Shown piece after piece: positions 4,320 through 24,018 of a stretch of 64,000 bases of DNA (positions are counted from its first letter, which is position 1; each line of letters begins with the position of its first letter). This DNA is from Gemmatimonadaceae bacterium (GTDB lineage Bacteria > Gemmatimonadota > Gemmatimonadetes > Gemmatimonadales > Gemmatimonadaceae): positions 3,624 through 67,623 of the forward strand of contig DASQFN010000031.1 of the NCBI GenBank assembly GCA_035633115.1, written 5' to 3'. Both the position numbers and the translations under genes were made by a program. The notes under the pieces are model-generated. The model made no database searches. It was not told the DNA's origin and was given only the letters and a program-made list of their open reading frames with translations.

Positions 4320-4336
4320 AAGATCTCGATCCAGTG

Positions 4337-5101: not shown

Positions 5102-5141
5102 ACTATAGTATCGAATAGTATACTATGCAATAGTATACTAC
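5100..5141. promoter_or_regulatory. Triple palindromic operator of higBA
   Basis: ATACTATAGTAT (5100-5111), ATAGTATACTAT (5115-5126) and TAGTATACTA (5131-5140), 15-bp period, over the toxin start. Confidence 0.75.
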
Positions 5142-5279
5142 TGGACTTGCGTGGCGACCCATGATCGTATCCTTGAGCTCGACAAACGTCCGAGGCCACT
5201 GTGTCAGAACGCTCCGCTCGCTTGAACTGATTCTCAGGGGTAGCTTGGTGACCGTTCAAGCCCATCGGATGTTCGACGC

Positions 5280-7691: not shown

Positions 7692-7825
7692 ATTAAACTC
7701 GTGGCAGGCAGAGGGCGAACGTGCTTCCCTTACCCGGTTCGCTTGCCACCGACAGATCTCCACCCATTGCATGCGATGTCGCACTTGACGGCAAAATCTC
7801 CCCTACGACTCCCGAGGTGCGGCGC

Positions 7826-10198
7826 TCATCCGCTTTTCAGTCCGACACGCTGCAACAGCCCATCGAACCGGGGATCAGACCGCAATGGATCAAGCCGCGG
7901 CTCGATCTTGAGATAGCGTACTGAGCCCGAGCGCTCAGAAACCGCCCTGTCGAGCCACAGAAATGCGTCGTCCTTTTCTCCCATCGCCGTGTAAACAAGC
8001 GCGATGAAGAACGGGCTGATGGGCTCCTTTGAGTCCAACAGCCCCTTCAGCACGCGTCGAGCTTCGTCAGTCCTTCCGGCCAACGCCTGACTCCGCGCAA
8101 GCGACGCGAGGTAGTTCGGATTTCCCGGCCGCAGCTTGAGCGCCTGCTGGTAGGCAGCCGTCGCTTCGGCCAGCGACCCCTTTTGCTCGTACGCCATTCC
8201 CATTATCCAGTACGAAGTCGCGAACTGGGGCTCGAGGCGAAGCGTCTTCTGCTCCTGTTGAATCGCGCGATCGTACTGGCGCGCCCCGTAATAAGCCATC
8301 CCCATATCCGCGCTCATCCTGGCCGACAACGGGTCGAGCTGCTCCGCACGCTTCATCGCCGCTACGGCCTGATCGACCTTCCCGACGGATGTGAGCGCCA
8401 GCGCGTACCAGTGATATGTCGCCGCCTGCTCAGGGTCGAGCTCCAGCGCGCGCCTGAACTCCGCCTCGGCTTGATCCCATTTCCACTCATGAAGCAGCAC
8501 ATGCGCCAGCGACGTGTGCGCCTCGGCCAGCGTCGAATCGAGCGCAAGGGCGCGCATTGCTGCCGCTCTCGCGCGCGGGTTCGCCTCCTCCGGTGGCAGA
8601 ATTTCGTAATCGAAGAGACTGATATACGCGTCCGCCATTCCTGAATACGCGTCGGCGAACGCAGGGTCGCGGCGGATTGCCTCCTCGAAATACCGGATCG
8701 ATTCCTTGAGGCCATCGGGGGTTCGCTTGTTCCACGCATAACGGCCTCGCAGGTACCGATCGTACGCTTCGAGATCGGAGGTTCCGTGACGCGCCCCCGC
8801 AGCGCGGGCGGACCCCGTGTCGAGCTTGACGCGAAGCGCTCCGACGATTGCACGCGTTATGTCGTCCTGAACACTGAAGACATCGCGCACCTCGCGCTCA
8901 TAGCTGTCGCTCCATCTCACAAGACCGTCGCTGGCGCTGGTGAGCTGAGCGCTCACGCGCAGACGGTTGCCTGCTCTGCGAACCGTTCCTTCGAGAACCG
9001 AGCCGACGTTGAGCGCGCGTCCCACTTCGCGCGCGTCGACCCGCTTACCCTGGAAGGTGAACGCCGAGCTGCGGGCTGCCACTCGAATCGCGGGGATTTT
9101 CGCGAGCGCATTCGTCAGCTCATCAGCCATCCCTTCGGCAAAGTACGCATTCGCGGTATCACCACCGACGTTCTCGAACGGAAGCACCGCCAGAGACTCT
9201 ACTCGGCCCGATACATTCGGCGCCGTCGTTCCACCGCGATTGCGAAGCGCGACGGCCGACGCAATCACGAGGGCAACGACTGCGATGGTGCCGCCAACCA
9301 GCAGGCGATTCCGAGTGAGCACAGGACTCGGCAGCGGGTGCTGTCCTGAGGAGCCAGCCACCGATTCCAGTCGCTCGACAATCTCGCGCGCTGACTGTGG
9401 CCTCTCGTCCGGATTCTTGGCGAGGCATTGCGTGACCAGTGCTGCAAGCGCGTGAGGCACACTCGGCTTCCCCGATTCCACGGGTGCTGGAGTCTCCATC
9501 GCATGCGCGATTGCAAGCTGATGCGACTGCCTGCCGGCGAAGGGAGTTTTTCCCGCGAGCAGCTCGTACGCGAGACAGCCGAACGAGTAGATGTCTGCGC
9601 GCCGGTCAGTCGCGGGATCGCCGAAGGCCTGCTCGGGAGCCATGTACGCCGGTGTGCCGATGCCCACGCCGGCTCTCGTAAGCGTTTCGCCGGAGCCGGC
9701 GGTTTGTGCCGCGCTCACCGCTTTGGCAATGCCGAAGTCCGTCACGACTGCGGCGTCTCCCGAAAGCAGGACATTCTCCGGCTTGATATCGCGGTGGACG
9801 ACGCCCTGATCGTGGGCGTACCATAGGGCGCGGGCCACGTCGCGCAGGATCCGAACGCATTCGGGAACTGAGAGCGGGTCTCCGCTCGTCATGCGCAAGC
9901 GGAGCGACAAGCCCTCCACAAACGGCATCGTGTAGTACGGCAAACCTCCGGCATCGCCTGCTGCGTGGAGGGGTACGATGTTCGGATGTTGAAGATTGGC
10001 GGCAAGACGAATCTCGCGCGCAAAACGCTCCCCGCTGACGCCTGCCGCGAGCTCGGGTGCGAGAACCTTGATGACCACCTTCCGGCCGAGCGCAGTTTCG
10101 ATAGCCACGAAGACGCGTGACATGCCACCGCCGCCGAGCTCGCGCTCCAGCGTGTACGTTGTTCCAAGCGCGGCTTGCAGCTGATCACGCAGGTTCAT
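7826..10198 (-). CDS. Ser/Thr protein kinase with TM, TolB_N-like and TPR domains
   Basis: Same motifs; likely start ATG 10198 (MNLRDQLQAALG), which overlaps the stop of the upstream fragment as TAATG. Confidence 0.95.
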   Translation of the reverse strand: MNLRDQLQAALGTTYTLERELGGGGMSRVFVAIETALGRKVVIKVLAPELAAGVSGERFAREIRLAANLQHPNIVPLHAAGDAGGLPYYTMPFVEGLSLRLRMTSGDPLSVPECVRILRDVARALWYAHDQGVVHRDIKPENVLLSGDAAVVTDFGIAKAVSAAQTAGSGETLTRAGVGIGTPAYMAPEQAFGDPATDRRADIYSFGCLAYELLAGKTPFAGRQSHQLAIAHAMETPAPVESGKPSVPHALAALVTQCLAKNPDERPQSAREIVERLESVAGSSGQHPLPSPVLTRNRLLVGGTIAVVALVIASAVALRNRGGTTAPNVSGRVESLAVLPFENVGGDTANAYFAEGMADELTNALAKIPAIRVAARSSAFTFQGKRVDAREVGRALNVGSVLEGTVRRAGNRLRVSAQLTSASDGLVRWSDSYEREVRDVFSVQDDITRAIVGALRVKLDTGSARAAGARHGTSDLEAYDRYLRGRYAWNKRTPDGLKESIRYFEEAIRRDPAFADAYSGMADAYISLFDYEILPPEEANPRARAAAMRALALDSTLAEAHTSLAHVLLHEWKWDQAEAEFRRALELDPEQAATYHWYALALTSVGKVDQAVAAMKRAEQLDPLSARMSADMGMAYYGARQYDRAIQQEQKTLRLEPQFATSYWIMGMAYEQKGSLAEATAAYQQALKLRPGNPNYLASLARSQALAGRTDEARRVLKGLLDSKEPISPFFIALVYTAMGEKDDAFLWLDRAVSERSGSVRYLKIEPRLDPLRSDPRFDGLLQRVGLKSG

Positions 10199-10374
10199 TA
10201 CTGAACCGGCCACCGTGCTTTCAATTCTTCGATCAGCGCCACGGGCCGATCATGCTTTCGATCGATCGCCCGGTACACGATCGCCATGCCGCCGCTGCCA
10301 ATCTCGGCTTCAACGGCGTAACAATCGCCGAGGGCGGCAGTGAGGCGGCGGCGGTCCGGGACCGGCTCAACCAT
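10198..10374 (-). pseudogene. Internally deleted Ser/Thr kinase (first ~46 and last ~12 codons)
   Basis: LTAALGDCYAVEAEIGSGGMAIVYRAIDRKHDRPVA (subdomains I-II) fused to LIEELKARWPVQ*. Confidence 0.75.
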
Positions 10375-10502
10375 TATCCATCCTGCGTCGGAGAAACCCG
10401 GTGAAAACCGCAAGTATCGCCATAGCCTTGGCCACGTTCAAGGCGCCGAGTTTTGATTGCTGATGAGCGCGAACGATGTTGCGTCCCGGGCCCGGGCGGC
10501 TG

Positions 10503-10520
10503 TATATCTATTGTAGATAC
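10503..10520. promoter_or_regulatory. mazEF operator candidate TATCTA-TTG-TAGATA
   Basis: Inverted repeat 10505-10510/10514-10519, ~30 bp upstream of mazE. Confidence 0.55.
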
Positions 10521-10547
10521 GGCCGGCGGTCTGTTGAGGGAGATGAA

Positions 10548-10787
10548 ATGGTTACTTCGGTTCAACGCTGGGGCAACAGCCTCGCGATTCGAATTCCCAA
10601 GGCATTCGCCGCACAGGCGCAGCTCAGCGAAAACACTGACGTCGACATTTCGCTGGAAGGAGACAAAATCGTCGTCACTCCCGCACGCCGCACGTGGAGC
10701 CTCCGCGAGCTCGTAGGCGATATTACTCCGGCAAACACACATCGCGAGATCCACTGGGGCGAGCGCACCGGCAAAGAGAGTTGGTGA
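10548..10787 (+). CDS. mazE: MazE (AbrB-type) antitoxin
   Basis: MVTSVQRWGNSLAIRIPK...LEGDKIVVTP...E.HWGERTGKESW. Confidence 0.92.
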   Translation: MVTSVQRWGNSLAIRIPKAFAAQAQLSENTDVDISLEGDKIVVTPARRTWSLRELVGDITPANTHREIHWGERTGKESW

Positions 10788-11137
10788 AGCCCCCTGCGAA
10801 ATCGCGCCCGTACGTGCCCGAGCGCGGAGATGCGGTCTGGCTGACGTTCGATCCTGCGGGTCATGAGCAGGCGGGACGGCGGCCCGCAGTCGTCCTGTCG
10901 CCGCGCGCATACAATGGTCGCAGTGGGCTCGCACTTCTCTGCCCCGTAACAAATCAGATCAAAGGCTATCCCTTCGAGGTAATACTCCCCGAAGGACTAC
11001 CCGTGGCCGGTGCCGTTCTCGCGGATCAGGTTCGAAGTCTCGACTGGCAGGCGCGACGCTCAACCCGAATATGCTCGCTCCCCGCAGACACGATGGACGA
11101 GGTCCTGGGAAAACTGGAGCCGCTGCTACAGCGGTAG
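10784..11137 (+). CDS. mazF: MazF endoribonuclease toxin
   Basis: YVPERGDAVWLTFDPAGHEQAGRRPAVVLSP...CPVTNQIKGYPFEV; GTGA overlap with mazE. Confidence 0.93.
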   Translation: MKPPAKSRPYVPERGDAVWLTFDPAGHEQAGRRPAVVLSPRAYNGRSGLALLCPVTNQIKGYPFEVILPEGLPVAGAVLADQVRSLDWQARRSTRICSLPADTMDEVLGKLEPLLQR

Positions 11138-11209
11138 CGCCCTCAACCCACCGCTCTCGCAAGTCCTCGATGAGCTGATTGAATCTCTTGTCGTCCCTCG
11201 ACGACTCCC

Positions 11210-11352
11210 GTAACAGTGGCCGGGCATGGCAATGACGATGTCAGCCCACGTACATTGAAGAGTATCCTGAAACAAGCCGGCCTCGAAAAACCCCGGCTGA
11301 GGGGAGATAAATGAGCCGCTATCTCGTAATCATCGAACTGACTCTAAATTGA
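11210..11352 (+). pseudogene. hicAB remnant (3' half of hicA, first 13 codons of hicB)
   Basis: VTVAGHGNDDVSPRTLKSILKQAGLEK...* then MSRYLVIIELTLN* from 11311; the hicB start ATGAGCCGcTATCTcGTAATCATCGAA is nearly identical to 1020-1046. Confidence 0.8.
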
Positions 11353-11399
11353 AGGTTCAGGGCTCTCCCAACGCCTCACATCTCACCAATGGTCACAGC

Positions 11400-12038
11400 A
11401 TGACAGACATCACTGATTCGATCCATCCGCGCCGACGATTCATCGGCCGAGCCGCGGCGGCAGTTGCCGCGCTCACGGGCTTCCCCGGACTCCTTCGCGC
11501 CAACACCAGCGCCGATGATTCAAAACACGACGCCTGGATGGGCCAGCTCAAGGGAAAACATCGCCAGCTCTTCCACGCCATCGACCTGAACGACAGGGCG
11601 ATGCTGATGGCGAACAATTATCTCGACGCCTACCAGAATGAGTTCGCCGAAAAGCCCGGCGAGGCGAGCGCCGTGATCGGGGTTCACGGCCCGGCCCTCT
11701 ATCTCGGGTTCAAAGATGCGGCGTGGACAAAGTATGCCTTCGGCAAGGCTGCGAATCTCATCGATCCCGCAACCAAAGAGCCGTCAGTCCGGAATATTTT
11801 CGCGACGGGCGGAGAGCTGGCCGTCGACACAGCGCAGAAGCGCGGCATCCTGTTCCTCATCTGCAACACCGCGCTTCGCCTTCGGTCGCGCGCCCTCGCG
11901 AAAGAGCGGGGTGAGACGTACGAGGTGGTTTACAAAGACCTCGAGGCGTCGCGGCTACCCGGCACCATTCTCGTTCCCGCATTGGTCGTCGCCATCAACC
12001 GCGCGCAGGAAAAGGGCGTGACCTACGTCAGAGTGTAA
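11400..12038 (+). CDS. Tat-exported DsrE/F-like protein
   Basis: PRRRFIG twin-arginine signal; GILFLICNTAL and VPALVVAINRAQEKGVTY resemble the DsrE-fold C-terminus. Confidence 0.6.
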   Translation: MTDITDSIHPRRRFIGRAAAAVAALTGFPGLLRANTSADDSKHDAWMGQLKGKHRQLFHAIDLNDRAMLMANNYLDAYQNEFAEKPGEASAVIGVHGPALYLGFKDAAWTKYAFGKAANLIDPATKEPSVRNIFATGGELAVDTAQKRGILFLICNTALRLRSRALAKERGETYEVVYKDLEASRLPGTILVPALVVAINRAQEKGVTYVRV

Positions 12039-12127
12039 GAGTACGCGACACGGTTGGGATGCTCGTCAGCACGGCATCGAGCTCCCAACCGGTACGCGAT
12101 CACGCTGATTGGCGCTGAGCACACCGA

Positions 12128-12628
12128 TCATCTCTCGAGCCGCCGCTTGAGCGCTCGAAGCAAAACGACATCATCCAGATCTCTCGGCCGGCCCGCAGCT
12201 TCTTTCGACCGAATGATGTCGTCGAGCGAGGCTGCCTGAAATTCAACTCCGAAGGCCTCGAACCGTTCGGCACCTCTGATGAGATCGTCGTAACCCTTCG
12301 TCCCGGCCGGCATGAATGCAAGGTCAACCCTTCCGGCCTTTGTCACGAGATTCCACATCGCTGCCCGACTGAGCGTCGCCGCGGAGCAGTCGAACGCGAG
12401 CCCCTGAGGCACCGACTCAGTGTACACCCGGGCATCGAGCTCGCGAAGCGCCGCTGCCAGTCGGTCGAGGTTCCGCTTGTCGCTCGCCGGCGTGATGTCG
12501 GCATCGGCTGTCAATCTGGGGAAACCGTGGAGTCGCGCCGCCAGAGCACCTATCAGGATGAATCGAACGCGATGAGTGTGAAGGGCGCGGAGTAACCGCT
12601 CGGGATCAAACGCGGCAACATCAGACAC
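12128..12628 (-). CDS. Nucleotidyltransferase (DNA pol beta superfamily)
   Basis: FILIGALAARLHGFPRLTADADI (GxxA...DxD), VDLAF, IIRSKEAAGRPRDLDD. Confidence 0.8.
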   Translation of the reverse strand: MSDVAAFDPERLLRALHTHRVRFILIGALAARLHGFPRLTADADITPASDKRNLDRLAAALRELDARVYTESVPQGLAFDCSAATLSRAAMWNLVTKAGRVDLAFMPAGTKGYDDLIRGAERFEAFGVEFQAASLDDIIRSKEAAGRPRDLDDVVLLRALKRRLER

Positions 12629-12944
12629 GACGCGCCGCGGCGAGGAAGCGACTCACGTGCGCCGCCTCGAGGAGGCGTTCCTCCGGAGTCAGGCGGAGAA
12701 TCCGCGCGACATCGTCGAGCTCCGACCGGTCGAGCCTGCGAATTCTTTTCAGCTCGGGCACCACGTTGAACCCCGCTGCGCGGAGCAGCCGCGCGAGCGT
12801 ATGCCATGTCGGACTGGTTTCGCCTAGCTCGACGCGCGCCACAACGGACTGCGCCGTGTGCGCCTTCCGCGCAAGGTCGCGCTGGGTCATGCCCGCCTGG
12901 AGCCTGGCGGTCTTCAACAGCTGAGCGACATCGTTGCGGGCCAT
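12621..12944 (-). CDS. XRE-family HTH regulator
   Basis: ARLQAGMTQRDLARKAHTAQSVVARVELGETSPT; C-terminal LTPEERL; 8-bp overlap with the NTase gene. Confidence 0.85.
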   Translation of the reverse strand: MARNDVAQLLKTARLQAGMTQRDLARKAHTAQSVVARVELGETSPTWHTLARLLRAAGFNVVPELKRIRRLDRSELDDVARILRLTPEERLLEAAHVSRFLAAARRV

Positions 12945-12950
12945 AGCGAA

Positions 12951-12970
12951 TGATAGCTAATTAGCTATCA
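12951..12970. promoter_or_regulatory. Perfect 20-bp palindrome TGATAGCTAATTAGCTATCA, operator candidate
   Basis: Read directly; 6 bp upstream of the HTH gene start. Confidence 0.75.
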
Positions 12971-13052
12971 ATTGTCGAGCGCGCCGGCTCCATAGGTCTT
13001 TCCGCAGGCGTGCTGATGGCCGGTCATATTGAGGATGAGCGCCACCCATCAG

Positions 13053-13268
13053 GGCATCTATGACGGAGGTTTCAAAGAGATTCGGCGGTTTATCCGGATT
13101 GAGTCGTACTGGCGTAAATGCCAGAGCGCACAACCGAACCTCTCATCTTTCTAGTTTTTAACAACAAAAAAATCCACATGCTGAGTGGCGGTTCGCCTGC
13201 GCGGGAGCCAGCTCGGAGACAATCCGGATAATCCGCCGAATCCTTTCGAAACCTCCTTCATAGATGCC
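13053..13268. repeat. Non-coding inverted-repeat element copy A (MITE/REPIN-like, 216 bp)
   Basis: Left end GGCATCTATGACGGAGGTTTCAAAGAGATTCGGCGGTTTATCCGGATT; right end is its imperfect reverse complement (...AATCCGGATAATCCGCCGAATCCTTTCGAAACCTCCTTCATAGATGCC). Confidence 0.9.
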
Positions 13269-13283
13269 TGATGGCCGCGCAGA

Positions 13284-14528
13284 TCAAGGGACGAATAGCG
13301 CTCCGTGCGGCATCGCCATGCCCTTCACTGCGTTCGGCCAGGTGTCACGTTTGTAGCTGACCCCGGGCTTCGCCGCGCCGGGATCGCGAAATGCCTCGTC
13401 CCACGACAAACGGCCGGTTGACTTGTCGAGATTCGCGATCAACACCATCGGGGGACCGTCGGCCTGATCGGTGACCACGACGCGATCGCTCCGCGGATCC
13501 GACGCAATCCAGTGTGGGAAGAAAGTCGAATCTGTTTGAAACGATGCGATTTCCTTCGGATTCGCAGGGTCGGAGATGTCGATTGTCGCAAACCGGTGCG
13601 CGTAGGCAATCGGCATTATCCAGAATTTTCTCGCGATCAACGGCACGGAACACCCGATGTTCGCCGGCTGAGGCAGGGCGAGCACGCGCGTGATCTGCGG
13701 TTCGCCGTCGAGACCGGTCAATCGATAAAAGCCACAGTAGTAGCTGTTCACGAGCACCGATCCGTCTTCGAGCGCGCGCAGCTCGAACGGATACCTGTGC
13801 GAGGAATCTCCCGCCACCTCGGGGACTGGCAATGTCTTGAGCAGCTTCAAATCGGATAGACGCCACACCTGGACGACGTCAGCCGCTCGCTCGCTGTCCA
13901 TCGGCGAGCTCGTGGTCACGACGCGATCGATCTTCGGAAGAGCAGCGAGGGCATACGTTCGAATTCTCGCGCCCGGGAACGCCGGATCACGCGACGATCC
14001 GCTGCGAACGAGCTTGCCCTGCGGGTCGAACTCGGCGAGACCGCCAGGATCTCCGGTGACTTTGCCGTCGCCGAACTGATAGCTCGCGAGAACATTCCCA
14101 TTCGGCAGTCGAAGGAACGAATGAACCCTTCGTCCACCGGGAACCTGCGCAACGCGGCCGCTCGATTTCGGGTTCCTCGGATCGCTGAAGTCGATCAGGA
14201 ACGACTTGTCGCCGGTGAAATCGTTTGCGAACAACGGTCCCTTTGCGGGAAGCTCGAACTCCGTGTGATGCGGCATCAGCCCGCTGGAGTCGACTGTCTG
14301 AGCAGCGATGACTGATCCGTACGTTTTGCTGGTCGGATCGGCGTCGAGCACGGTGATCATGTTGAGTCCGGCAGTCGAATCGTGGCCAGTGCCCGCCCAC
14401 ACATACAAGTAGCGTGATGGTCCGCTCGCGCTCGATTCGGCGGTCGATTCGCCGTCCGGGCGAGCACAGCCGGCCACGACCGTCACAACAGCGAATACGA
14501 GCGAAATCCGGCCTTTGAAATCCGTCAC
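13284..14528 (-). CDS. SBP56/methanethiol-oxidase-like beta-propeller lipoprotein
   Basis: Likely GTG start 14528 with VVAGC lipobox; YLYVWAG...TVLDADPTSKTYGSVI...PHH N-terminal pattern. Confidence 0.6.
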   Translation of the reverse strand: MTDFKGRISLVFAVVTVVAGCARPDGESTAESSASGPSRYLYVWAGTGHDSTAGLNMITVLDADPTSKTYGSVIAAQTVDSSGLMPHHTEFELPAKGPLFANDFTGDKSFLIDFSDPRNPKSSGRVAQVPGGRRVHSFLRLPNGNVLASYQFGDGKVTGDPGGLAEFDPQGKLVRSGSSRDPAFPGARIRTYALAALPKIDRVVTTSSPMDSERAADVVQVWRLSDLKLLKTLPVPEVAGDSSHRYPFELRALEDGSVLVNSYYCGFYRLTGLDGEPQITRVLALPQPANIGCSVPLIARKFWIMPIAYAHRFATIDISDPANPKEIASFQTDSTFFPHWIASDPRSDRVVVTDQADGPPMVLIANLDKSTGRLSWDEAFRDPGAAKPGVSYKRDTWPNAVKGMAMPHGALFVP

Positions 14529-14608
14529 CCCGAGCTCCCGTTTGAAATTGTGAACGGGGAGTTTGCAGCCAACGCCCCTCTTATGCAAACGGCTGTCGCG
14601 CCCATCAA

Positions 14609-14822
14609 GCATCTATGACGGAAGTTTCGAAGAGATTCGGCGGATTTTCCGGATCGAGTCGTACTGGCGTACAGGCTAGTGCCCGCAATCGGACGTCTCT
14701 CTGTTTTGTTGTTAACAACAAAAACAGTCGCCAGGCTGAGTGGCGGTTCGCCTGCCTTGGCGCCAGTTCGGAAACAATCCGGATAATCCGCCGAATCCCT
14801 TCGAAACTTCCGACATAGATGC
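14609..14822. repeat. Non-coding inverted-repeat element copy B (214 bp)
   Basis: Same TIRs and colinear interior as copy A (roughly 80% identical by eye); central perfect palindrome TTTTGTTGTTAACAACAAAA at 14704-14723. Confidence 0.9.
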
Positions 14823-15022
14823 CGGCCAAGGGCGCAGAAGCCGGGTGAGCACAGATGATGGCTGAAACCGTGGGCGCGGGGTAAGGCAAACGACCTAGTC
14901 GGGCACACCAAGAACCGATCGGACCCTCGCCGAATACGGTGATCGCCCAATTCCTGCCACCGCGCCAAAACACGAAGACTTCGGCCAACAGACAATCCGT
15001 CTCCCCCGAATCGAGGAAAACC

Positions 15023-16366
15023 ATGCGAACGCGAACCTACCTTGCCCGGTGGTCCGTCATCGTCCCCGCCATCGCAGTGCTCACCGCCTGCAGCGACGCC
15101 GTTTCACCCACAAGTCCGCGCGCCGCGCCGGACCCGACAGCTACCCTCGTGGCCACCGACGGCTCCATTCCAGGCAACTATATAGTTGTTGCCAACTGGA
15201 GCGCCGACGTTCTCGCGCTCACCGCGCAATACGGCATCGAGCCGAAGTACGTGTACGAGCATCTCATCAACGGATTCGCGGCTGCCTTCCCCACGGAAGT
15301 CGCGAACGCACTCGCTGCCGATCCGCGCGTCCTCAAAATCTCGGTACAGCGCCAGTACTCGAAGGTCGAAACTGTCACCCAGGCGCATGCTACGTGGGGC
15401 ATCGACCGCATCGACCAGCGCGCGCTGCCGATGGACTCGAGCTACTCCTACGACTTCACGGGAGCCGGCGTCACCTCGTACATCATCGACACCGGGATCC
15501 GTTACTCGCACAGCGAGTTCGAGGGGCGAGCCGTGCGCGGGTTCGACGCCTTCGCCGCCGACCCAGCCGATCCCCTACTCGGCTACGACGGGTCGGGTGA
15601 TTGCGACGGGCACGGCACCCACGTCTCAGGTACGGTAGGTGGAAAAACGTGGGGCGTCGCCAAGAAGGTGAAGCTGGTCGGCGTCCGAGTGCTGAACTGC
15701 GCCGGTTATGGATCGGATGCAGACGTCATCGCCGGAATGGACTGGGTCGCGAAGAACGCAACCCTTCCCGCCTCGGCCAACATGTCACTCGGCGACGTCG
15801 TCCCGACCAAGACGCTCGGAACCAACGGCCCGGTTGACGACGCGGTCAAGGCACTCATCGCTTCGGGCGTGACGCTCGCTGTCGCTGCCGGCAACGGCTG
15901 GGGCAATGGGACCGTTGGCGCCGACGCGTGCATGTTCCCGATCTCGAACGTCCCCGAAGCGATCACGGTCGCGGCCAGCACGAAGACTGACACGCGTACG
16001 ACGTGGACGAACTACGGCGCATGCATCGACGTCTTTGCGCCGGGCTCGAGCGTAATGTCGTCGACGTTCGACAACGACACATCGTTTGGCACGAAGAGCG
16101 GCACATCCATGGCGGCCCCGCACGTCGCCGGCGTGGCGTCCCTGATTCTTCAACAGGCACCCGGCGCCACACCGCAGCAGGTGCGCGACATCATCGTGAG
16201 CCAGGCGACGCAGAACATCATCCTGCCGACCACGACGAACAACGGTCACACGATGAACAGCCATCTGCTCTACAGCAGAGCGGTGGCGCCGGCCGCACTC
16301 GTTGGTAAGCCGCCGAAGAACCCCAAGCCGTGCACTCCGAAGCGGCAGCACAACGGAGAGTGCTGA
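15023..16366 (+). CDS. S8 subtilisin-like serine protease (aqualysin/proteinase K-like) with I9 propeptide, lipoprotein
   Basis: IIDTG, DGHGTHV, GTSMA triad; LTAC lipobox; GAGGAAA RBS before ATG 15023. Confidence 0.93.
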   Translation: MRTRTYLARWSVIVPAIAVLTACSDAVSPTSPRAAPDPTATLVATDGSIPGNYIVVANWSADVLALTAQYGIEPKYVYEHLINGFAAAFPTEVANALAADPRVLKISVQRQYSKVETVTQAHATWGIDRIDQRALPMDSSYSYDFTGAGVTSYIIDTGIRYSHSEFEGRAVRGFDAFAADPADPLLGYDGSGDCDGHGTHVSGTVGGKTWGVAKKVKLVGVRVLNCAGYGSDADVIAGMDWVAKNATLPASANMSLGDVVPTKTLGTNGPVDDAVKALIASGVTLAVAAGNGWGNGTVGADACMFPISNVPEAITVAASTKTDTRTTWTNYGACIDVFAPGSSVMSSTFDNDTSFGTKSGTSMAAPHVAGVASLILQQAPGATPQQVRDIIVSQATQNIILPTTTNNGHTMNSHLLYSRAVAPAALVGKPPKNPKPCTPKRQHNGEC

Positions 16367-16563
16367 TCTAAATCGCTGCGGTGGTCAGTCGACGCCGCAG
16401 CGCACGGACATCGCCAGGGCATTCGGGCTCACATGGACGAAGCGCGATGCTCGCGGGGGGGTGGCACCATCGCCCCCTCGCCTGGCGAGGGTCGAAACTT
16501 TAAGCGCTGGTGCCACGGGTGAGGGAAGCGGTGTTTCGTGACGCGACCGCTCCAGCGTAGCCG

Positions 16564-17010
16564 CTAGCGAACCTCGAATGGCCGAGACGCTGCGCGATCC
16601 GGCGGCACTGGCCTTCCGTCCTCACCGAGCAAACCGGTAAACACGACTCGATAGGTACCTGCCGACATTCCGGTGGGGATATCGAAAAGCGCGTTGATCG
16701 ACGCCCCTTTGGCGAGCGACCTCGCCTCCGCGGTGCAGGCACCGCCGGCCGTCGGCCACTCGAAAACCACGACCCAGCTGTTGTCCACCCTTCTCTCGAG
16801 GCGACGCTGACAGAGGTTGTACTCGATCGTCTTATCGGACGTATTCCGAATCGTCGCTTCGCCCGTGCTGCCACGGTTGTATTGATCTCTGTTCGTCGTG
16901 ATCTGATAAGCACCCGACGAGCCGCCGCGACCGAGCAGACCGCCGCAGCCGCCGAGTGTAACCGCACCTGCGAGAAGTGCAACGAGCGCCGTTCGCATTT
17001 GAAACCGCAT
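16564..17010 (-). CDS. Hypothetical lipoprotein with Ig-like domain
   Basis: TLGGC lipobox; TNRDQYNRG...IRNTSDKTIEYNLC...GTYRVV Ig-like pattern. Confidence 0.6.
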   Translation of the reverse strand: MRFQMRTALVALLAGAVTLGGCGGLLGRGGSSGAYQITTNRDQYNRGSTGEATIRNTSDKTIEYNLCQRRLERRVDNSWVVVFEWPTAGGACTAEARSLAKGASINALFDIPTGMSAGTYRVVFTGLLGEDGRPVPPDRAASRPFEVR

Positions 17011-17117
17011 CTTGATCCTCCACTTTGAGATCTGCTGGGCGACGACTGCGAAACGATTCACTTATCGTACCAACCACTTCCCGCGTGCTCGGCGCCGACA
17101 CCCGAAGGTCGCCGCGT

Positions 17118-17143
17118 ACGTACATATTGTGCATTTTGTACGT
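17118..17143. promoter_or_regulatory. Operator candidate ACGTACA-N12-TGTACGT
   Basis: 7-bp inverted repeat 20 bp upstream of the Phd-type antitoxin. Confidence 0.55.
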
Positions 17144-17162
17144 TGTCGATAACTTGACTGTC

Positions 17163-17417
17163 ATGACTCGTCTTCCTGCCACCGAAGCACGGATTCGATT
17201 CGCCGAACTGGTTAATGATGTCGCGTTTGGCGGCGAGCGTGTTGTATTGCAGCGGCATGGCAAAGACATCGCCGCCGTTGTGCCAATAGAGGATCTCGCT
17301 CTCCTCGAGGAGCTCGAGGACCGCATCGATCTCGACGCGGCTCGTAAAGCGCTTCGCGACAAGGAGCCCGCCATTGCCTGGGGCGCCTTGAAGCGCGAGC
17401 TGGGTCTCAAGCGCTAA
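17163..17417 (+). CDS. Phd/YefM-family antitoxin
   Basis: ATEARIRFAELVNDVAFGGERVVLQRHGKDIAAVVP motif. Confidence 0.88.
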   Translation: MTRLPATEARIRFAELVNDVAFGGERVVLQRHGKDIAAVVPIEDLALLEELEDRIDLDAARKALRDKEPAIAWGALKRELGLKR

Positions 17418-17474
17418 CGTCGCGCGGACGGGTAATTCTCCGCCGGGTCCCAAATCACAGGTCCGGACCGACCT

Positions 17475-17732
17475 CCGTATCGAATCGAGATCTCGGCGCG
17501 AGCGGCGTGGGAATTTCGAAAGCTCGAGCCGGCGGCTCATCGGCGGCTGAGTCGTAAGATCGATTCGCTGTCGCTGGACCCACGCCCGCCGGGCGTCAAA
17601 AAGCTATCGGGTAAGGAAGGCGTCTATCGTGTTCGGGATGGAGATTTCAGGATCGTCTACAGCATCGAGGACAGGAAGCTGCTGATTCTGGTGCTCTCAG
17701 TCGGCAACCGTCGCGACATCTACAAGCGTTGA
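17475..17732 (+). CDS. relE: RelE/ParE-family toxin with no canonical start codon
   Basis: Manual translation PYRIEISARAAWEFRKL...DPRPPGVKKLSGKEGVYRVRDGDFRIVYSIEDRKLLILVLSVGNRRDIYKR*; the frame opens after TAA 17433-17435 with no ATG/GTG/TTG before the conserved start. Confidence 0.8.
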   Translation, partial: PYRIEISARAAWEFRKLEPAAHRRLSRKIDSLSLDPRPPGVKKLSGKEGVYRVRDGDFRIVYSIEDRKLLILVLSVGNRRDIYKR

Positions 17733-17777
17733 TCAAGAGCAGAGAGCGATGATTATCGTGTCAGTGCCATCGACCAA

Positions 17778-19004
17778 TCACTGCCTGCCAGCAACCTTCA
17801 CCGGCCTGAAATACCTCTGCACCGCAAGTTTCCCGATCGACACTCCCATCGCCTTCCCCGCATCCGCCGAAAAGCGATAATGCACTCCGGCCATGATGCG
17901 GGACTCGGAAACTTCATCGATGTATTCCTGCGCCGAGTGATATCTGCGGAGCATCGTCTTCTCCTGGTCGACGACGATCGGCGGCATTTTCTTCCCGAAT
18001 TCCTGATCGATCACCGTCCCCACCGCTGCCGCTGAAAGGCAGTGGCCACACGGATACTCCGGATGTGCCGGAGTCGTTGCGATCATCGTTACCCACGTCG
18101 AATCGGCGGCGGTCGAATCGTTACCATCCATCGCGGCACTTCGGATGGCCGTAACCGGACGCCACAGGTTGTACGCGTACTTGCCGTCCATCATAGCGAC
18201 GTATGAATCAGCCCACGCCATCTCCGCCAGGGCCAGGAAACGTGCATCGTCCACCAGGCTCCGCCCTGGTAATCCAATGAGCTGCCGCAGAATGAGTCGC
18301 ACGTCACGTCCCGCCCAGAACATTCCGACGTCGCTCTGCTCGGCGCTTCGGGCCTTGCTCCCCTTGGAGCCAATCGCCTTGATCTCGTTGTAGTCGCGCA
18401 CCCATGCCGCACTCTTGAGCGCCGGTGGAGGCGGGGGCCTGAGCTCATCCGGCTTCTTCATCACCCAGGGGCTCTGATGTGCCCAGACCATTCCGATCTG
18501 ACGAAGTGTCGGCACATAGACCCCTGCGGTTGCAGGCGACATGAACGGATCCTTTCTGTCGGCCTTCGAATTTGCCCGGGCGGCGAGAACTGCCGCAGCT
18601 GCCTGTCGTCCCACCGCAGCTCCGTTCTCTCGCGAAACGCTGTCCTTGATCAGGGCAAGTGAAGACTTTAATGCGGAATCGAACGCCGATTTCTGGTCCG
18701 CGCAAAGTTTGACGAGAATACCGTGGGCGGCGGTCGCCGCCGCAGCGTCCATCGAGCTGCCGGGAGCGGCGACTATCTTTGCGGTGTACGGCGTGTACTT
18801 GCCGGCTATCGCGTTGATTGCCTCGAACATCGCGACATGCATCATCGCGTATTCGTCGGTCTGCGATGCGTCTTCGCACTTGTCAGCCTGATCGCGCCAA
18901 TGGAGGAGCACGTTGTTCACCACTCCGGCGGACGTGATTGCCGGGAGGAGCAAAACTGTGAGAAGTATGAACGGTAGGAATCGGCGGGCACGATCGGAGT
19001 GCAT
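17778..19004 (-). CDS. Vanadium-dependent haloperoxidase/PAP2-like protein, secreted
   Basis: GKYAYNLWRP, HPEYPCGH, SRIMAGVHY motifs; N-terminal signal; likely ATG 19004. Confidence 0.85.
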   Translation of the reverse strand: MHSDRARRFLPFILLTVLLLPAITSAGVVNNVLLHWRDQADKCEDASQTDEYAMMHVAMFEAINAIAGKYTPYTAKIVAAPGSSMDAAAATAAHGILVKLCADQKSAFDSALKSSLALIKDSVSRENGAAVGRQAAAAVLAARANSKADRKDPFMSPATAGVYVPTLRQIGMVWAHQSPWVMKKPDELRPPPPPALKSAAWVRDYNEIKAIGSKGSKARSAEQSDVGMFWAGRDVRLILRQLIGLPGRSLVDDARFLALAEMAWADSYVAMMDGKYAYNLWRPVTAIRSAAMDGNDSTAADSTWVTMIATTPAHPEYPCGHCLSAAAVGTVIDQEFGKKMPPIVVDQEKTMLRRYHSAQEYIDEVSESRIMAGVHYRFSADAGKAMGVSIGKLAVQRYFRPVKVAGRQ

Positions 19005-19045
19005 GACTATCTCCTGACTACCGGCAATGCTCTTATCTGCCGTCA

Positions 19046-19104
19046 ATGAGAGAAAGCTCAAACGGATTCGGCGGATTATCCGGATCGAATTGTACATGCG
19101 TAAA
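19046..19104 (+). repeat. Half-copy (single left TIR) of the inverted-repeat element
   Basis: ATGAGAGAAAGCTCAAACGGATTCGGCGGATTATCCGGATCGAATTGTACATGCGTAAA aligns with the left end of copies A and B. Confidence 0.75.
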
Positions 19105-19123
19105 GCTCTTCCGCAACAGACGA

Positions 19124-19225
19124 TCAACGAACCGCGCTCACCTTTCCCAGGTATCGATCGAGCCAGTCGAGCGTCTCGCGAATCATCTCCTCTCGCGGAA
19201 GAAAGTGCTGCGTGGGATAAATCCT
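19124..19225 (-). pseudogene. C-terminal remnant of an alpha/beta-hydrolase (DLH/S9-like) domain
   Basis: RIYPTQHFLPREEMIRETLDWLDRYLGKVSAVR*, typical hydrolase tail including the catalytic-His region; a stop lies directly upstream. Confidence 0.6.
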
Positions 19226-19365
19226 TCACGTCCATGATGACGTGATCGCGATACGCACTTCCACGGCGTGTGCTTGAATGCCCGTCACGGATGAGGAAAC
19301 GGAGCTCAGCCCTGGCTGGGTAGCGCAACAAGGGGATCGCCTTCACCTTTGCTAGCCGATCCCCC

Positions 19366-22005
19366 ATGCAGACCGACGCACTCGAGCGCGTCACGCGCAC
19401 ACTCGCCGACCGCTACCACGTCGAACGCCTTATCGGCGAAGGCGGGATGGCGACGGTGTATCTCGCGCGCGATCTCAAACACGACCGCGACGTCGCCCTC
19501 AAGATCCTGAACCCCGAGCTCGGCGCGGTACTCGGGACGGACCGCTTCCTCGCTGAAATCCGTGTCACGGCCCGGCTTCAGCATCCGAATCTCCTCCCGC
19601 TTTTCGACAGCGGCGACGCCGAAGGAATCCTGTTTTACGTGATGCCGTTCGTCGAGGGCGAGTCGCTGCGGGCACGTCTCGAGCGTGAACGACAGCTCCC
19701 GCTCGATGAAACGATTCACATCGCCGCCGCGGTGGCAAACGGGCTCGACTACGCCCACGACCACTCCGTCATCCACCGCGACCTCAAGCCCGAGAACATT
19801 CTTCTTCAGTCCGGCCAGCCGCTCATTGCCGACTTCGGGATTGCGCTTGCCGTTACCGTCGCCGGTGGCCAACGCGTAACCCAAACCGGCCTCTCGCTCG
19901 GCACGCCACAGTACATGTCGCCCGAGCAGGCGACGGGCGACCGTCAGATAGATAGACGCACCGACATCTACTCGCTTGGCGCAGTCGTGTACGAGATGCT
20001 CACTGGTGAGCCGCCTCACACGGGCGGAACCGTTCAGGCTATTGTCGCGAAAGTTCTCACCGAGAGGCCGAGGCGTGTGAGGCTCATGCGGCCGAGCGTG
20101 CCGGAGCATGTGGAGCAGGCGATCGACTCCGCGCTGGAGAAAGTGCCGGCGGACAGATGGCAGAGCGCCGGAGATTTCGCCGATGCACTGCGCGGGCGCG
20201 CGCGGACCCTTCCATCGACGAGTCGCAGCTACAGTGCAGCAGAGGCTTCGGCCTCCGCGCGAACACTCGGGTCGCGGCTGCGTGATCCTATAGTGGTGGC
20301 GGCCGTTGCTCTGGCAGTGGCTGCTTCCGGATTCGCCGCGTGGAGCTCGATGAAAAGCGAGCCGCAGGCGTTGTCAGGACCCGTCCGCTTTGCTTTCGCT
20401 GCTCCCGAGGAGGTCGCGTCGGTGATCGGAACCCTGGACATCTCGCCGGATGGGCGCAACATCGTCTACCTGGCGAGCGTCGGGGGAATGAACGCGCTTG
20501 CACTGCGGTCGCTCGACTCGCTGGCCCCGCGACTGCTCGAGGGTGTTACAGCTCCCGAAAGTCCGACTTTTTCTCCTGACGGCCGGTGGGTCGCATTTCT
20601 GTCAGGGTCAGCCTTGAAAAAAATCTCTGTCGATGGCGGTCCAGTCATCACGCTCACGGAATGGACGCGCCCGAGAATCGGCCTCTATGCCATTCGATGG
20701 AGCGACGACGGGATCCTCGTCGGATCGGAGCGCGGATTGTTTCTCGTTCCTCCGAGCGGAGGAGAGCCGCGTCTGTTCGCGCCGATCGATTCAGCGCGCG
20801 GCGAAACCTTTCGCGCCGGTCCCCAGCCGATTCCCGGCACGCACGCGGTGCTCTTCGCGTCGGGCAGGGCAGCGCCTAGCCCGCCCCGGATCGGGGTTAC
20901 GATCGTTCCGACCGGAAAGACCAAGGATCTCGGGATTCTCGGATTCAACGCGCTCGGTGTTGTAGCGGGGCACCTCCTGTACCTCGCGAACGAAGTCGTC
21001 ATGGCCGTTCCCTTCGACCTGAAGAAGCTCGAGACGACGGGAACCCCTGTGCCGGTCCTCGACCGTGTAAATGGAGTCGGACAGATTGCTCTCTCGCAAG
21101 CCGGAACGCTCGTGTATCGCATGGGATCGGGAGCGGACCAGCCGTCGCTCGTTTCCCGCGACTCGGTACAGCCATTATTGCCTGTGGGACGCTATACGCA
21201 CGCCGCGTATTCTCCCGATGGGCGGCGCATCGCCCTGTCGTTACTGGACGGCGACAAGATTGACATTGCAGTGTACGACATCGCGGCGCGATCTCTCACT
21301 CGTCTTACAACTGACGGCTCAGGTAACGATCGTCCCGAATGGACTCCGGACGGCACGCGAATCATCTATCGGTCGACGCGTCAGGGCAAAGAGGCACTGT
21401 GGTGGCAGCCGGTTGATGGAAGCGGTCCGGCCGAGCTTCTTCTCGAGCGGCCCGGCGGCGTTCAGGAGGGGGTGATTACGCCGGACGGAACGACGCTGAT
21501 CTATCGCACGATCAGGCCGGTCACGGGTCGCGACATTCTCGCGCGGCGACTATCAGGCGATACGACCAGCCGGCTGATCGTCGGGACCGAAGCCAGTGAG
21601 TCGCACATCGCCGTTTCTTCCGATGGGAGATTTCTGGCGTATCAGTCCAACGAATCGGGAAGGGCTGAAGTTTTCGTTCGGTCGCTTCAGGGCGCCGGGG
21701 CGCGCTGGCAGGTCACTAACGATGGCGGAGCCAGTCCGGTGTGGTCGCGAGACGGCAGGAAGCTTTTCTATTTCAGCGGGCGAACCATCGCATTCGCGCG
21801 TGTTTCGACCGACGGCGGCCGCTTTGCCGTCGTTTCGCGGGACACGCTCGCCACCGGCTCGTACTTTCGTTCGCCCAGCCACCGCTCCTTCGATGCCACG
21901 CCCGATGGCAATCAAGTGCTCGCGTTGGTGTTCGCGGGTGGTGATGTCGTTCCCGTTGTTGTCCTCAACTGGGTGACAGAGCTCAGACAGAAGCTCGCTC
22001 GTTAG
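19366..22005 (+). CDS. Ser/Thr protein kinase with TM and PD40/TolB-like beta-propeller
   Basis: GEGGMATV, VALK, HRDLKPEN, DFG; repeated SPDGR motifs; C-terminal VVLNW. Confidence 0.95.
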   Translation: MQTDALERVTRTLADRYHVERLIGEGGMATVYLARDLKHDRDVALKILNPELGAVLGTDRFLAEIRVTARLQHPNLLPLFDSGDAEGILFYVMPFVEGESLRARLERERQLPLDETIHIAAAVANGLDYAHDHSVIHRDLKPENILLQSGQPLIADFGIALAVTVAGGQRVTQTGLSLGTPQYMSPEQATGDRQIDRRTDIYSLGAVVYEMLTGEPPHTGGTVQAIVAKVLTERPRRVRLMRPSVPEHVEQAIDSALEKVPADRWQSAGDFADALRGRARTLPSTSRSYSAAEASASARTLGSRLRDPIVVAAVALAVAASGFAAWSSMKSEPQALSGPVRFAFAAPEEVASVIGTLDISPDGRNIVYLASVGGMNALALRSLDSLAPRLLEGVTAPESPTFSPDGRWVAFLSGSALKKISVDGGPVITLTEWTRPRIGLYAIRWSDDGILVGSERGLFLVPPSGGEPRLFAPIDSARGETFRAGPQPIPGTHAVLFASGRAAPSPPRIGVTIVPTGKTKDLGILGFNALGVVAGHLLYLANEVVMAVPFDLKKLETTGTPVPVLDRVNGVGQIALSQAGTLVYRMGSGADQPSLVSRDSVQPLLPVGRYTHAAYSPDGRRIALSLLDGDKIDIAVYDIAARSLTRLTTDGSGNDRPEWTPDGTRIIYRSTRQGKEALWWQPVDGSGPAELLLERPGGVQEGVITPDGTTLIYRTIRPVTGRDILARRLSGDTTSRLIVGTEASESHIAVSSDGRFLAYQSNESGRAEVFVRSLQGAGARWQVTNDGGASPVWSRDGRKLFYFSGRTIAFARVSTDGGRFAVVSRDTLATGSYFRSPSHRSFDATPDGNQVLALVFAGGDVVPVVVLNWVTELRQKLAR

Positions 22006-22046
22006 CCGTCGACGGCGCGCCCCCGTCGCTTTTACGCCTGAGGCGC

Positions 22047-23060
22047 TCAGCGCACGACGGCAACGACGAGGGCGATCAGCCCGAGCACTGCACCAAAGCC
22101 TGCAATCAGCACAGCCGCCTGCCCGGTCTTTCTCCATCGCAGCTCGGCGGCTTCGATGGCGCGCATCAGCCGATCTTCGCTCGACGGAGCCTCGTCCCCG
22201 AAGAGCGACTGTTGCATCACGCTCTTCCCGCCCATTACCTCGGCCATGGCCCGCTCCATCTGCCAGTGATGAATTCGCTTGGCCTCGTCAATCCCCGGCT
22301 CCGCCGCAGCCATCGTCGCTGCCTTGAGAACGGCATTCTTGATGTCGCCGCCGCTCACCAGGTATCTCTCCGCCAGATCGCGAAAATTCACATCGTCCGC
22401 CAGCGGAGTCTTGGATGGATGGATCTGTACTTTCCAGATCTGCTCACGCTCGTCGACGCCCGGCATCTCGAACAACACGTGAGTTCTAATGCGGCGCTCG
22501 AACGCGGGGTCGAAGTTCACGGCGAGGTTTGTCGCAAAGATCACGACACCGTTGAACGCCTCGAGCTCCTTGAGCAGAACATTCACGACGGTATTCGATT
22601 CGCGCGCATACCCCTGCACCGCACCGGTCGTGCGACGTGAAGCAATCGCGTCGGCTTCATCGAAGAAGAGAACCGCATCCTCCTCGGCAGCCATCCTGAA
22701 CACCGCGGCGACGTTCTTCGGCGTCTCACCCGCCCACATCGACTCCATCTCGGCGTACCGCACCGACAGCAGCTTCTTGCCGAGCGCGGTCGCGATCGCC
22801 TCGGCACAGATGGTTTTTCCGGTGCCGGGCGGGCCGGCAAAGTTGAACGCCAGGCCGAGGCCGCTCGAGTGCCGCTCGCCCAGGCCCCACTGGGTGAAGA
22901 TCAGCGCGTGGCTTCGCACCAGACTCAACGCCTCGTCAAGCTGCGCGCGCGTGCGAGGCGGGAGGATTACATCGGCAAACGTGCGGCGCGTGTCGATTGT
23001 CTCGACCGCTCGGCGGCCGCCAATTCGGCCAGCGATGAAATCGCGGATGGGGGTAGGCAT
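22047..23060 (-). CDS. AAA+ ATPase with C-terminal membrane anchor
   Basis: GPPGTGKT Walker A, FFDEAD Walker B, ATN...DPAFERR SRH; hydrophobic C-terminal tail. Confidence 0.88.
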   Translation of the reverse strand: MPTPIRDFIAGRIGGRRAVETIDTRRTFADVILPPRTRAQLDEALSLVRSHALIFTQWGLGERHSSGLGLAFNFAGPPGTGKTICAEAIATALGKKLLSVRYAEMESMWAGETPKNVAAVFRMAAEEDAVLFFDEADAIASRRTTGAVQGYARESNTVVNVLLKELEAFNGVVIFATNLAVNFDPAFERRIRTHVLFEMPGVDEREQIWKVQIHPSKTPLADDVNFRDLAERYLVSGGDIKNAVLKAATMAAAEPGIDEAKRIHHWQMERAMAEVMGGKSVMQQSLFGDEAPSSEDRLMRAIEAAELRWRKTGQAAVLIAGFGAVLGLIALVVAVVR

Positions 23061-23139
23061 CTGACAATGGATTTAACGAAGAAAACGCGTCGGGAACAAG
23101 GACTAGAGACACCGTTTCTCGCCGGTTTGATCCGGTCAG

Positions 23140-23703
23140 GCATCTATGACGGAGGGTTCTTCAGGATTCGGCGGATTAACCGGATTGACTCCGCGCGTCA
23201 GAAAAGCATGCGTACTGGCAGAAATTGATTATTGGGGAACTACGGAACTGCGTACCGTTCTGCTATGCGTCAACTCGTCGAGCAAGAGCTCACAAAATCC
23301 ATCATTGGTGCGTTCTACGAGGTCTACAACGCCCTTGGATTCGGGTTTCTCGAGCACACGTACGTAATGGCGCTGGAGCGCGAGCTCAGGGCCCGCGGAC
23401 ACCAACGTTGCCCGGGAAGCCTCGGTGCGAATCATGTACAAGGGCGAGGAGCTGTCCTACCAACGACTGGACATGATCGTTGACGGCAAGGTGATCGTGG
23501 AAGCCAAATCCACGCTGGAGCTTCATAAGAGTGCCCGGCGCCAGGTCTACAACTACCTGAGAGCGACTGATCTGGAAGTGGGATTGCTCCTTCATTTTGG
23601 CCCCACCGCCAGCTTCTACCGCGAAATCCGTAGTACCCCAAAAAAGAAATCAGCCGAATCCGTTAAATCAGCCGAATCCCTTTAAACCCTCGGACATAGA
23701 TGC
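23140..23703 (+). mobile_element. TIR-bounded element carrying a GxxExxY gene (putative autonomous partner of the 215-bp elements)
   Basis: Left GCATCTATGACGGAGGGTTCTTCAGGATTCGGCGGATTAACCGGATT; right end reverse-complements to GCATCTATGTCCGAGGGTTTAAAGGGATTCGGCTGATTTAACGGATT; encloses only the GxxExxY gene. Confidence 0.7.
23265..23685 (+). pseudogene. GxxExxY protein (PD-(D/E)XK-like), +1 frameshift near 23400-23406
   Basis: ELTKSIIGAFYEVYNALGFGFLEHTY (GxxExxY) in one frame; VAREASVRIMYKG...RLDMIVDGKVIVEAK...QVYNYL...GLLLHFG in the next. Confidence 0.88.
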
Positions 23704-23796
23704 GTGAGAGGCGCCACGCAAGTTGCCTCACCGCCTTCTCGGAGCATTCCAGGGTGTCCGCTGAATGAGCCGGCGACTCTTATTGCGCAGTTGCCG

Positions 23797-24018
23797 CTAG
23801 TCCTTGTTACCCGGCTCGTACTTGAATGAGACCTTCACCTTCGCGCGGTAAGTCTCGATCTTGCCGTCCCGCATCTGCACGTCGAGCTGAGAAACTTCGG
23901 CGACTCTCAGCTCTCTCACTGTCTTCCCCGCCCGTCTGAGCGCGGCAGCTGCTGCTTTTTCCCACGATTCAGTGCTCGTGCCAATCAGCTCGATCACTTT
24001 GTAAACGCTTTCTGCCAT
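23797..24018 (-). CDS. Dodecin-family protein
   Basis: SVYKVIELIGTSTESWEKAA...YRAKVKVSFKYE. Confidence 0.9.
   Translation of the reverse strand: MAESVYKVIELIGTSTESWEKAAAAALRRAGKTVRELRVAEVSQLDVQMRDGKIETYRAKVKVSFKYEPGNKD

Follow-up and report, generated by a model that had tools for sequence, protein, structure and literature searches.

The Ssn proteins are small GIY-YIG nucleases (cd10448) whose genes have their own hairpin repeat, the NTS, on either side (PMC11893778). We describe here a locus that, judged by its layout, would have Ssn/NTS as its closest published analogue: in a window of 64,000 nucleotides (the whole stretch of DNA that was analyzed, C31:3624-67623) from the metagenome-assembled genome of a Gemmatimonadaceae-like soil bacterium (G000; 4.13 Mb in 123 contigs), a gene of the GxxExxY family (PF13366/TIGR04256) lies in the loop of a long palindrome, and the arms of this palindrome also bound gene-less foldback elements elsewhere in the genome. 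As a type, such a cassette appears analogous both to Ssn/NTS and to the RAYT/REPIN systems. Insertion sequences (IS) of the IS200/IS605 kind use a Y1/HUH transposase, have hairpin ends that are recognized as DNA structure, leave no target-site duplication and are very small; they have no long terminal inverted repeats, their ends being different subterminal hairpins. Nucleases of the PD-(D/E)XK superfamily are tied to mobile DNA in the case of TnsA of Tn7, Rpn/YhgA (PDDEXK_2) and the homing endonuclease I-Ssp6803I, and to our knowledge none of these has been described in the loop of unit-array palindromes. PF12784 has been entered as a "putative transposase" (PMC3424549). The function of PF13366/TIGR04256 was entered as "unknown" in a 2012 superfamily survey; in the literature that we searched, no function was assigned to these families, mentions of GxxExxY had no connection to repeats, and no description of the gene-plus-repeat design was found.

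Our leading reading, held with moderate confidence, is that the locus belongs to a repeat-plus-nuclease system and has decayed, being a GxxExxY cassette with cognate DNA foldback repeats. The cassette is laid out as follows.

23136..23706, plus strand: gene-bearing cassette of 571 bp, whose outer arms and inner inverted repeat frame a loop that holds the GxxExxY gene.
23136..23196, plus strand: left arm, with the terminal module TCAGGCATCTATGACGGAGG and then GGATT units at 9-nt spacing (GGATTCGGC GGATTAACC GGATTGAC).
23232..23246, plus strand: left half of the inner inverted repeat, TTGGGGAACTACGGA, which pairs with 23627-23641 (TCCGTAGTACCCCAA) both when read directly and in the DNA fold.
23265..23408, plus strand: N-terminal part of the GxxExxY gene, covering profile positions 1 to about 39-41 and holding GFLEHTY; the frame ends at the extra A at 23404/23405.
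23407..23685, plus strand: C-terminal part of the GxxExxY gene, in the +1 frame, covering profile positions 47-108, with LDMIV and VEAKS as the D and ExK.
23650..23706, plus strand: right arm, the complement of the left, which supplies the final ~12 codons of the reading frame and its stop.

The arms are about 55 bp long (matched stretches 23139-23193 and 23657-23703), and the inverted repeat reaches TCA...TGA at 23136/23706. Each arm is built from a terminal module, (TCA)GGCATCTATGACGGAGG, and three GGATT units at 9-nt spacing, for example GGATTCGGC GGATTATCC GGATTGAG. Folded as single-stranded DNA and compared with dinucleotide shuffles, as was done for all fold scores here, the cassette reaches z = -4.7, and a promoter scan of it returned no sigma-70-like site. 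The genome G032 carries an orthologous cassette that adjoins an AAA gene, and CGGAT units are the only arm sequence that it has in common with the window's cassette, which suggests that the units are the constrained part of the arm. The original prediction had described four repeat positions, and all four are present in the sequence, as is the layout of an autonomous-looking, gene-bearing copy alongside non-autonomous, gene-less copies with the same ends.

The gene itself, listed earlier as 23265-23685, is broken: its N- and C-terminal parts lie in different frames, separated by one extra A at 23404/23405 (CCAACG, versus CCACG in a sister strain), and the uninterrupted frame of about 125-145 amino acids that the family leads one to expect is absent from the window. 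Three further contigs were found through an identical neighboring dodecin protein. L065, an independent assembly of run SRR6683738 from the same sample, is identical to the window, frameshift included, and L066 and L067 come from the sister strain, whose p442 protein is 95-96% identical to the window's. There the same site holds the same order of AAA gene, cassette and dodecin, and the GxxExxY gene is intact at 146 amino acids (orthologue P0121). The SAESVKSAESL tail that had been ascribed to the right repeat does come from the right arm, which in the sister strain is read in another frame; the tail is therefore incidental. Both parts in the window are still recognized by family profiles, scoring 35.8 bits (N) and 59.6 bits (C) with TIGR04256 (cut-off 35) and 39.9 and 59.5 bits with PF13366 (PDDEXK_3, cut-off 22), and in the Pfam scan PF13366 was the sole match of the gene between the arms. 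Because their cognate gene is frameshifted, the members of this family in the genome, hereafter the CGGAT family, are relics unless another GxxExxY protein acts on them.

The nuclease motif (the E of GxxExxY, the D and the ExK) is kept in the window's two frames and in P0121, and in the family alignment A1 the residues E33, D73 and K85 are invariant. The predicted structure, a confident one (pLDDT 87.8), is a minimal alpha-beta nuclease core, for which the best matches in a PDB fold search were weak ones: Cas4 SSO0001, lambda exonuclease and splicing endonucleases (E >= 4e-3, TM <= 0.54). The predicted fold is PD-(D/E)XK-like, with Cas4 SSO0001 and lambda exonuclease nearest, and these matches give no specific mechanistic relative. 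A sequence search of the PDB with the protein found no match, and the PADLOC defence models gave no match to known defence families. The family is very large, with at least 7,995 matches at E <= 1e-10 among the 8,000 candidates scored.

Two full gene-less elements and one half copy lie upstream of the cassette in the window.

13046..13275, plus strand: gene-less foldback element A (core 13053-13268), whose inverted repeat extends to CCATCAG/CTGATGG.
14600..14823, plus strand: gene-less foldback element B (core 14608-14823).
19042..19119, plus strand: lone half copy of left-arm type, with units GGATTCGGC GGATTATCC GGATCGAA.

The arms of these gene-less copies are those of the gene-bearing copy, and arms and gene-less copies form one family. 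Within A and B the arms are 90-93% complementary, and element A folds as a rod, well outside what chance would give (z = -11.6). The repeat extends well beyond the few copies in the window: an nhmmer profile built from the full copies and run on the genome recovered 9 full copies of 209-219 bp (two on C31 and one each on C11, C111, C29, C117, C114, C21 and C102) and about 6 partial ones. All are intergenic, and at several sites the distance to a stop codon is 7-67 bp. Neither target-site duplications nor direct repeats were found at any of 10 copies or in any comparison of empty with filled sites, in line with the earlier remark on the window's copies; instead, the flanks often extend the palindrome (TCA...TGA). 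This lack of duplications sets the family apart from a DDE-type pair of IS and miniature inverted-repeat transposable element (MITE). The two arms of a copy also co-vary, with a complementarity of 0.79 within copies versus 0.75 between copies (permutation p = 0.006), and C102, C117 and C114 carry matching changes on both arms. The motif CGTACTGGC, noted earlier next to the left repeat, is present in A, B and the cassette, but in local alignment their interiors score no better than shuffled sequence. We considered the 215-bp interior as a simple deletion product of the window's cassette and rejected this derivation on the same alignment.

Some of these copies have neighbors that merit separate mention. 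The upstream extension of a 540-amino-acid open frame (17778-19400, minus strand) runs through the half copy at 19042-19119, and the start of this frame is probably further in, at the signal-peptide-like MHSDRARRFLPFILL. On C111 (133559-134481 of G000), a gene-less CGGAT element lies 7 bp past the stop of a DUF72 gene. Six congeners (loci L031 and L049-L053) have a GxxExxY gene convergent to the DUF72 gene, and G006 has no cassette there. Judging from these neighborhoods, the C111 site may once have held a cassette, of which a foldback is left.

The association of gene and arms holds beyond this genome. The comparison took in 36 further genomes from the genus and 24 from other genera in the order; all relatives but one sister strain stand at 20-30% DNA divergence. 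The arm motif occurs in 14/36 congeners and in 0/24 genomes of the other genera, with a count of 0 for a reversed-pattern control. Genomes carry from 0 to 11 PF13366 genes, many of them fragments, and presence of the motif is associated with presence of PF13366 among the 36 congeners (Fisher p = 0.002). The original prediction asked whether GxxExxY genes elsewhere are flanked by repeats of their own. In relatives, 28 PF13366 loci could be tested, and 25 of them lie between inverted arms that score beyond the 99th percentile of a random control. These arms are built as arrays, with units of 7-10 nt that vary between loci. The subfamily of the protein matches the sequence of the unit, and the co-variation of repeat and protein that was to be checked is borne out by the CGGAT-flanked proteins, which share 61% identity with each other versus 39% with the rest (p = 1e-4). 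In G035 the gene of the cassette is internally deleted, and the gene-less copies of G001 and G061 keep the 3' inner segment of a gene-bearing cassette; gene-less copies can thus arise by deletion.

The window's genome contains two further PF13366 genes, each between arms of its own that differ from those of the other. The gene at C58:178479 is intact and has arms of GCAGAG-type units. The one at C58:55086 is truncated at profile position 82 and has arms of CACAGAAA x3 at 8-nt spacing. The latter family (cassette C58:54930-55400) has at least 10 gene-less pairs of 116-200 bp, among them C58:19695-19873, C114:148043-148234 and C86:7734-7934. Among the other GxxExxY genes, in this genome and in relatives, two have arms that match gene-less copies in the same genome. 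The CACAGAAA arms are 87-97% identical between copies, which makes this family younger than the CGGAT family. The interiors of some of its gene-less copies (C106:129938-130114, C79:215958-216093, C11:43374-43553) resemble GGGGAACAGCCCGCGCGGCTCGGGCC, the inner hairpin of the GCAGAG cassette, and inner modules therefore seem to be common to families with differing outer arms. The assignment to the REPIN/RAYT kind did not survive: the arms enclose no Y1/HUH gene, and the only PF01797 gene of the genome (IS200-like Y1 transposase, C25:286-642, on a 3.9-kb contig) has flanks that are unique in the genome and is unrelated to the foldback repeats.

Since the species of the genus diverged, single intergenic sites have gained or lost copies. 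For every copy, the two 400-bp flanks were joined and searched against the genus, and uninterrupted sites were found in relatives at the C117, C114, C102 and C29 positions; B is absent from the metagenome contig L072, where the S8 and p442 genes adjoin. These five positions are accompanied by a reciprocal case, a full CGGAT element in G014 whose site is empty in the window's genome (C47:355366-355385). At the C114 site, G005 has a gene-less element with CACAGAAA arms instead, so two families have used one intergenic gap. Look-ups of identical proteins for the neighbors of the other copies returned no match or only the same sample, and yielded no further empty sites at strain level. The copies have been amplified separately in each genome: A and B resemble each other at 84% in one strain and 87% in the other, versus 77% for orthologues between strains, and for other copies, too, likeness is greater inside a genome than across genomes. 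One copy has flipped its interior between the two strains, as the interior of B is 81% identical to that of the sister strain when reverse-complemented versus 71% in the same orientation, with the outer arms possibly included. Synteny with the sister strain (L082) breaks exactly at the left end of A (window 1-13046), where a foldback element marks a boundary of variable DNA; to its left lie a toxin-antitoxin-rich block in the window and an unrelated gene in the sister strain. The AAA and p442 genes, which are adjacent in G032 and in the metagenome contig L088, are separated by ~7.2 kb in the window (14823-22046). This block starts at B, contains the half copy, and holds an S8 peptidase, an antitoxin-like gene, the 540-amino-acid gene and a Ser/Thr kinase. 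The original prediction was to be abandoned if the repeat was confined to its few copies, if homologues lacked matching flanks and if no empty sites existed; the repeat is dispersed, the homologues are flanked and empty sites exist. What stands of it is the shared-end architecture, the dispersal, the flanks, the empty sites and the co-variation of repeat and protein; what falls is membership of the REP/RAYT kind, and the gene here is a broken one.

That GxxExxY acts on the arms can be inferred from the framing of genes across the family, the co-variation of unit and protein, and a signature at the level of DNA. The parts of the system are a PD-(D/E)XK nuclease gene of ~130-145 amino acids, lodged in the loop of a long DNA palindrome whose arms have a terminal module and then three or four short units each (here GGATT or CGGAT at 9-nt spacing), and gene-less versions of ~215 bp, which keep both arms and fold back on themselves. 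In the mechanism that we envisage, the nuclease would bind the spaced units as a multimer and cut at or near the arm ends, on the hairpin or cruciform form of the arms. The breaks would then be repaired from other copies, or the cut element would be rejoined elsewhere, with insertion without target-site duplication, inversion and homogenization of copies within a genome as the outcome. In its widest form, GxxExxY proteins would be the dedicated enzymes of unrecognized, very widespread minimal DNA foldback elements, each nuclease of ~130 amino acids reading and cutting its own arms and the breaks driving duplication-free insertion, interior inversion and conversion of gene-less derivatives. We put this forward only tentatively, as a possibility to which we give less than even weight. 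If GxxExxY proteins were such enzymes, the window would represent a late stage of the life cycle, with the nuclease dead and the relics still kept as palindromes. The gene-plus-repeat design, which is found again throughout the gene family, may mark an undescribed kind of selfish DNA.

Several observations weigh against a repeat-plus-nuclease system of this kind. The simple picture of an active transposase is opposed by conserved cassette sites, by stasis at the strain level and by broken genes in company with the largest copy sets. Gene-bearing cassettes keep conserved sites across species, beside the AAA gene or beside DUF72, and thus behave as vertically inherited. A, B and the cassette are all at the same sites in the sister strain, with no change of occupancy. 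In this genome two families have about 10 gene-less copies each, and the gene of both is broken; the intact gene is accompanied by none. Identity between CGGAT copies is 63-86%, so no recent burst has taken place, and in local alignment the interiors of the 215-bp copies are no more similar to that of the cassette than shuffled sequence is. Simple physical linkage would also lead protein and arms to co-vary, and ordinary recombination could explain why A and B are more alike within a strain, as the copies are 1.3 kb apart. Intergenic DNA of the relatives is so diverged that junctions and targets are unreadable, and insertion and loss are inseparable at single sites.

Other explanations share parts of this evidence. 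GxxExxY might instead be a sequence-specific, possibly single-strand DNA nuclease of the Ssn kind, with the dispersed hairpins as its recognition sites, the gene flanked by them, and a role in DNA uptake, recombination or self/non-self marking, while the repeats are spread by host recombination or replication errors. The same layout has been published for GIY-YIG nucleases between their own hairpin repeats, with specificity that differs by homologue (PMC11893778), and the cassettes at conserved sites across species, the tracking of unit sequence by protein subfamily and the lack of target-site duplications would all suit it. However, there are only about 10-15 sites per genome versus hundreds for NTS, the gene is in many cases broken although its repeats remain, and the arms pair across the gene rather than each forming a self-contained hairpin. 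The spread of a short binding site would also leave unexplained why 215-bp units with a conserved interior are copied whole, and we regard this explanation as unlikely. An explanation at the RNA level, in which the arms would matter because they form a long stem in the transcript that undergoes processing, or that stabilizes or terminates the RNA, like the stems of rRNA intervening sequences, and in which gene-less copies would be decayed cassettes or terminator-like hairpins, can draw on the 7-67 bp that separate copies from stop codons at several sites and on the rod-like fold of the whole element. We judge it very improbable. Across 28 cassettes, sense-strand arm mismatches show no preference for G.U-compatible changes (35 of G.T type versus 44 of A.C type, p = 0.37) and most are of transversion type (89), and wobble counts in the gene-less copies are equal on both strands; this symmetry of the arm constraint points to DNA and not to a sense transcript. 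In addition, one copy is inverted in the sister strain without having been lost, an Rfam scan of 12900-24000 at E <= 1 found no match, and the dispersal of 215-bp units to new sites would be left unexplained.

The foldback could also be moved or copied by host recombination, by template switching at palindromes or by an unlinked transposase, with GxxExxY as its cargo, for example a defence or addiction nuclease that gains from the ride in the loop. Consistent with this, there are more gene-less than gene-bearing copies, they are found even where the gene has died, none of them goes with the intact gene, and G014 has a CGGAT element and no detected gene of CGGAT type. Yet random cargo would be expected to lose so tight an association as that of 25 of the 28 family genes in relatives with their own arms, and the arms differ between protein subfamilies but keep the unit-array design. 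The absence of a match to known defence families and the lack of linkage between the repeats and the genome's only Y1 transposase gene also count against a cargo role, which we consider improbable.

The tie between the gene and its own palindrome poses a concrete functional question, namely whether the protein binds and cuts its own arms. If it does, a partnership of a PD-(D/E)XK nuclease with a repeat would join those of HUH (RAYT) and GIY-YIG (Ssn) enzymes, and an explanation would be at hand for many of the short palindromes between genes of soil and other bacteria. What the window adds is a set of gains and losses between species that run both ways, the use of one site by two families, and the flip of an interior between strains. 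It also supplies a pair of orthologues, one intact and one frameshifted, and a test that speaks against a role for RNA only.

The locus resembles the REP/REPIN and RAYT systems (the REPtron) in that a lone gene lies between inverted copies of the genome's own dispersed palindromic repeat, in that gene-less doublets fold as hairpins (here 9 full copies, with the z score of -11.6 for A), and in that there is no target-site duplication and repeat and gene vary by lineage. It differs in its enzyme, a predicted PD-(D/E)XK nuclease and not a Y1/HUH transposase (PF01797), and in its repeat: whereas REPs are single hairpins of about 20-35 nt, the arms here are ~55 nt long with units at 9-nt spacing, and the gene-less unit spans ~215 bp, its interior conserved. 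As with MITEs and their parent IS, gene-bearing and gene-less copies have the same terminal inverted repeats and amplification is lineage specific. An origin by internal deletion is clear for copies in relatives (G035, G001/G061), but the interiors of the window genome's 215-bp copies match its cassette no better than chance. Unlike in those pairs, there is no DDE transposase and no target-site duplication, and the whole gene-less element, not only its ends, is near-palindromic. The lack of target-site duplication, the very small size and, in the proposed mechanism, hairpin ends recognized as DNA structure recall IS200/IS605, from which the cassette differs by having no Y1/HUH enzyme and by its long terminal inverted repeats. 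TnsA, Rpn/YhgA and I-Ssp6803I come from the same nuclease superfamily, there used to cut element ends or targets, but they are different families, with larger proteins or partner proteins. In Ssn with NTS/SRM, as here, a small stand-alone nuclease gene lies between hairpin-forming repeats that are also dispersed in the genome (PMC11893778). The Ssn proteins have the GIY-YIG fold (cd10448) and an activity demonstrated in vitro, whereas the GxxExxY protein matches PF13366 only and has a predicted PD-(D/E)XK-like fold. NTS are present in hundreds of copies, each its own short hairpin, in contrast to the about 10-15 copies here, whose arms pair across the gene. In both systems, variants of the repeat go with variants of the protein.

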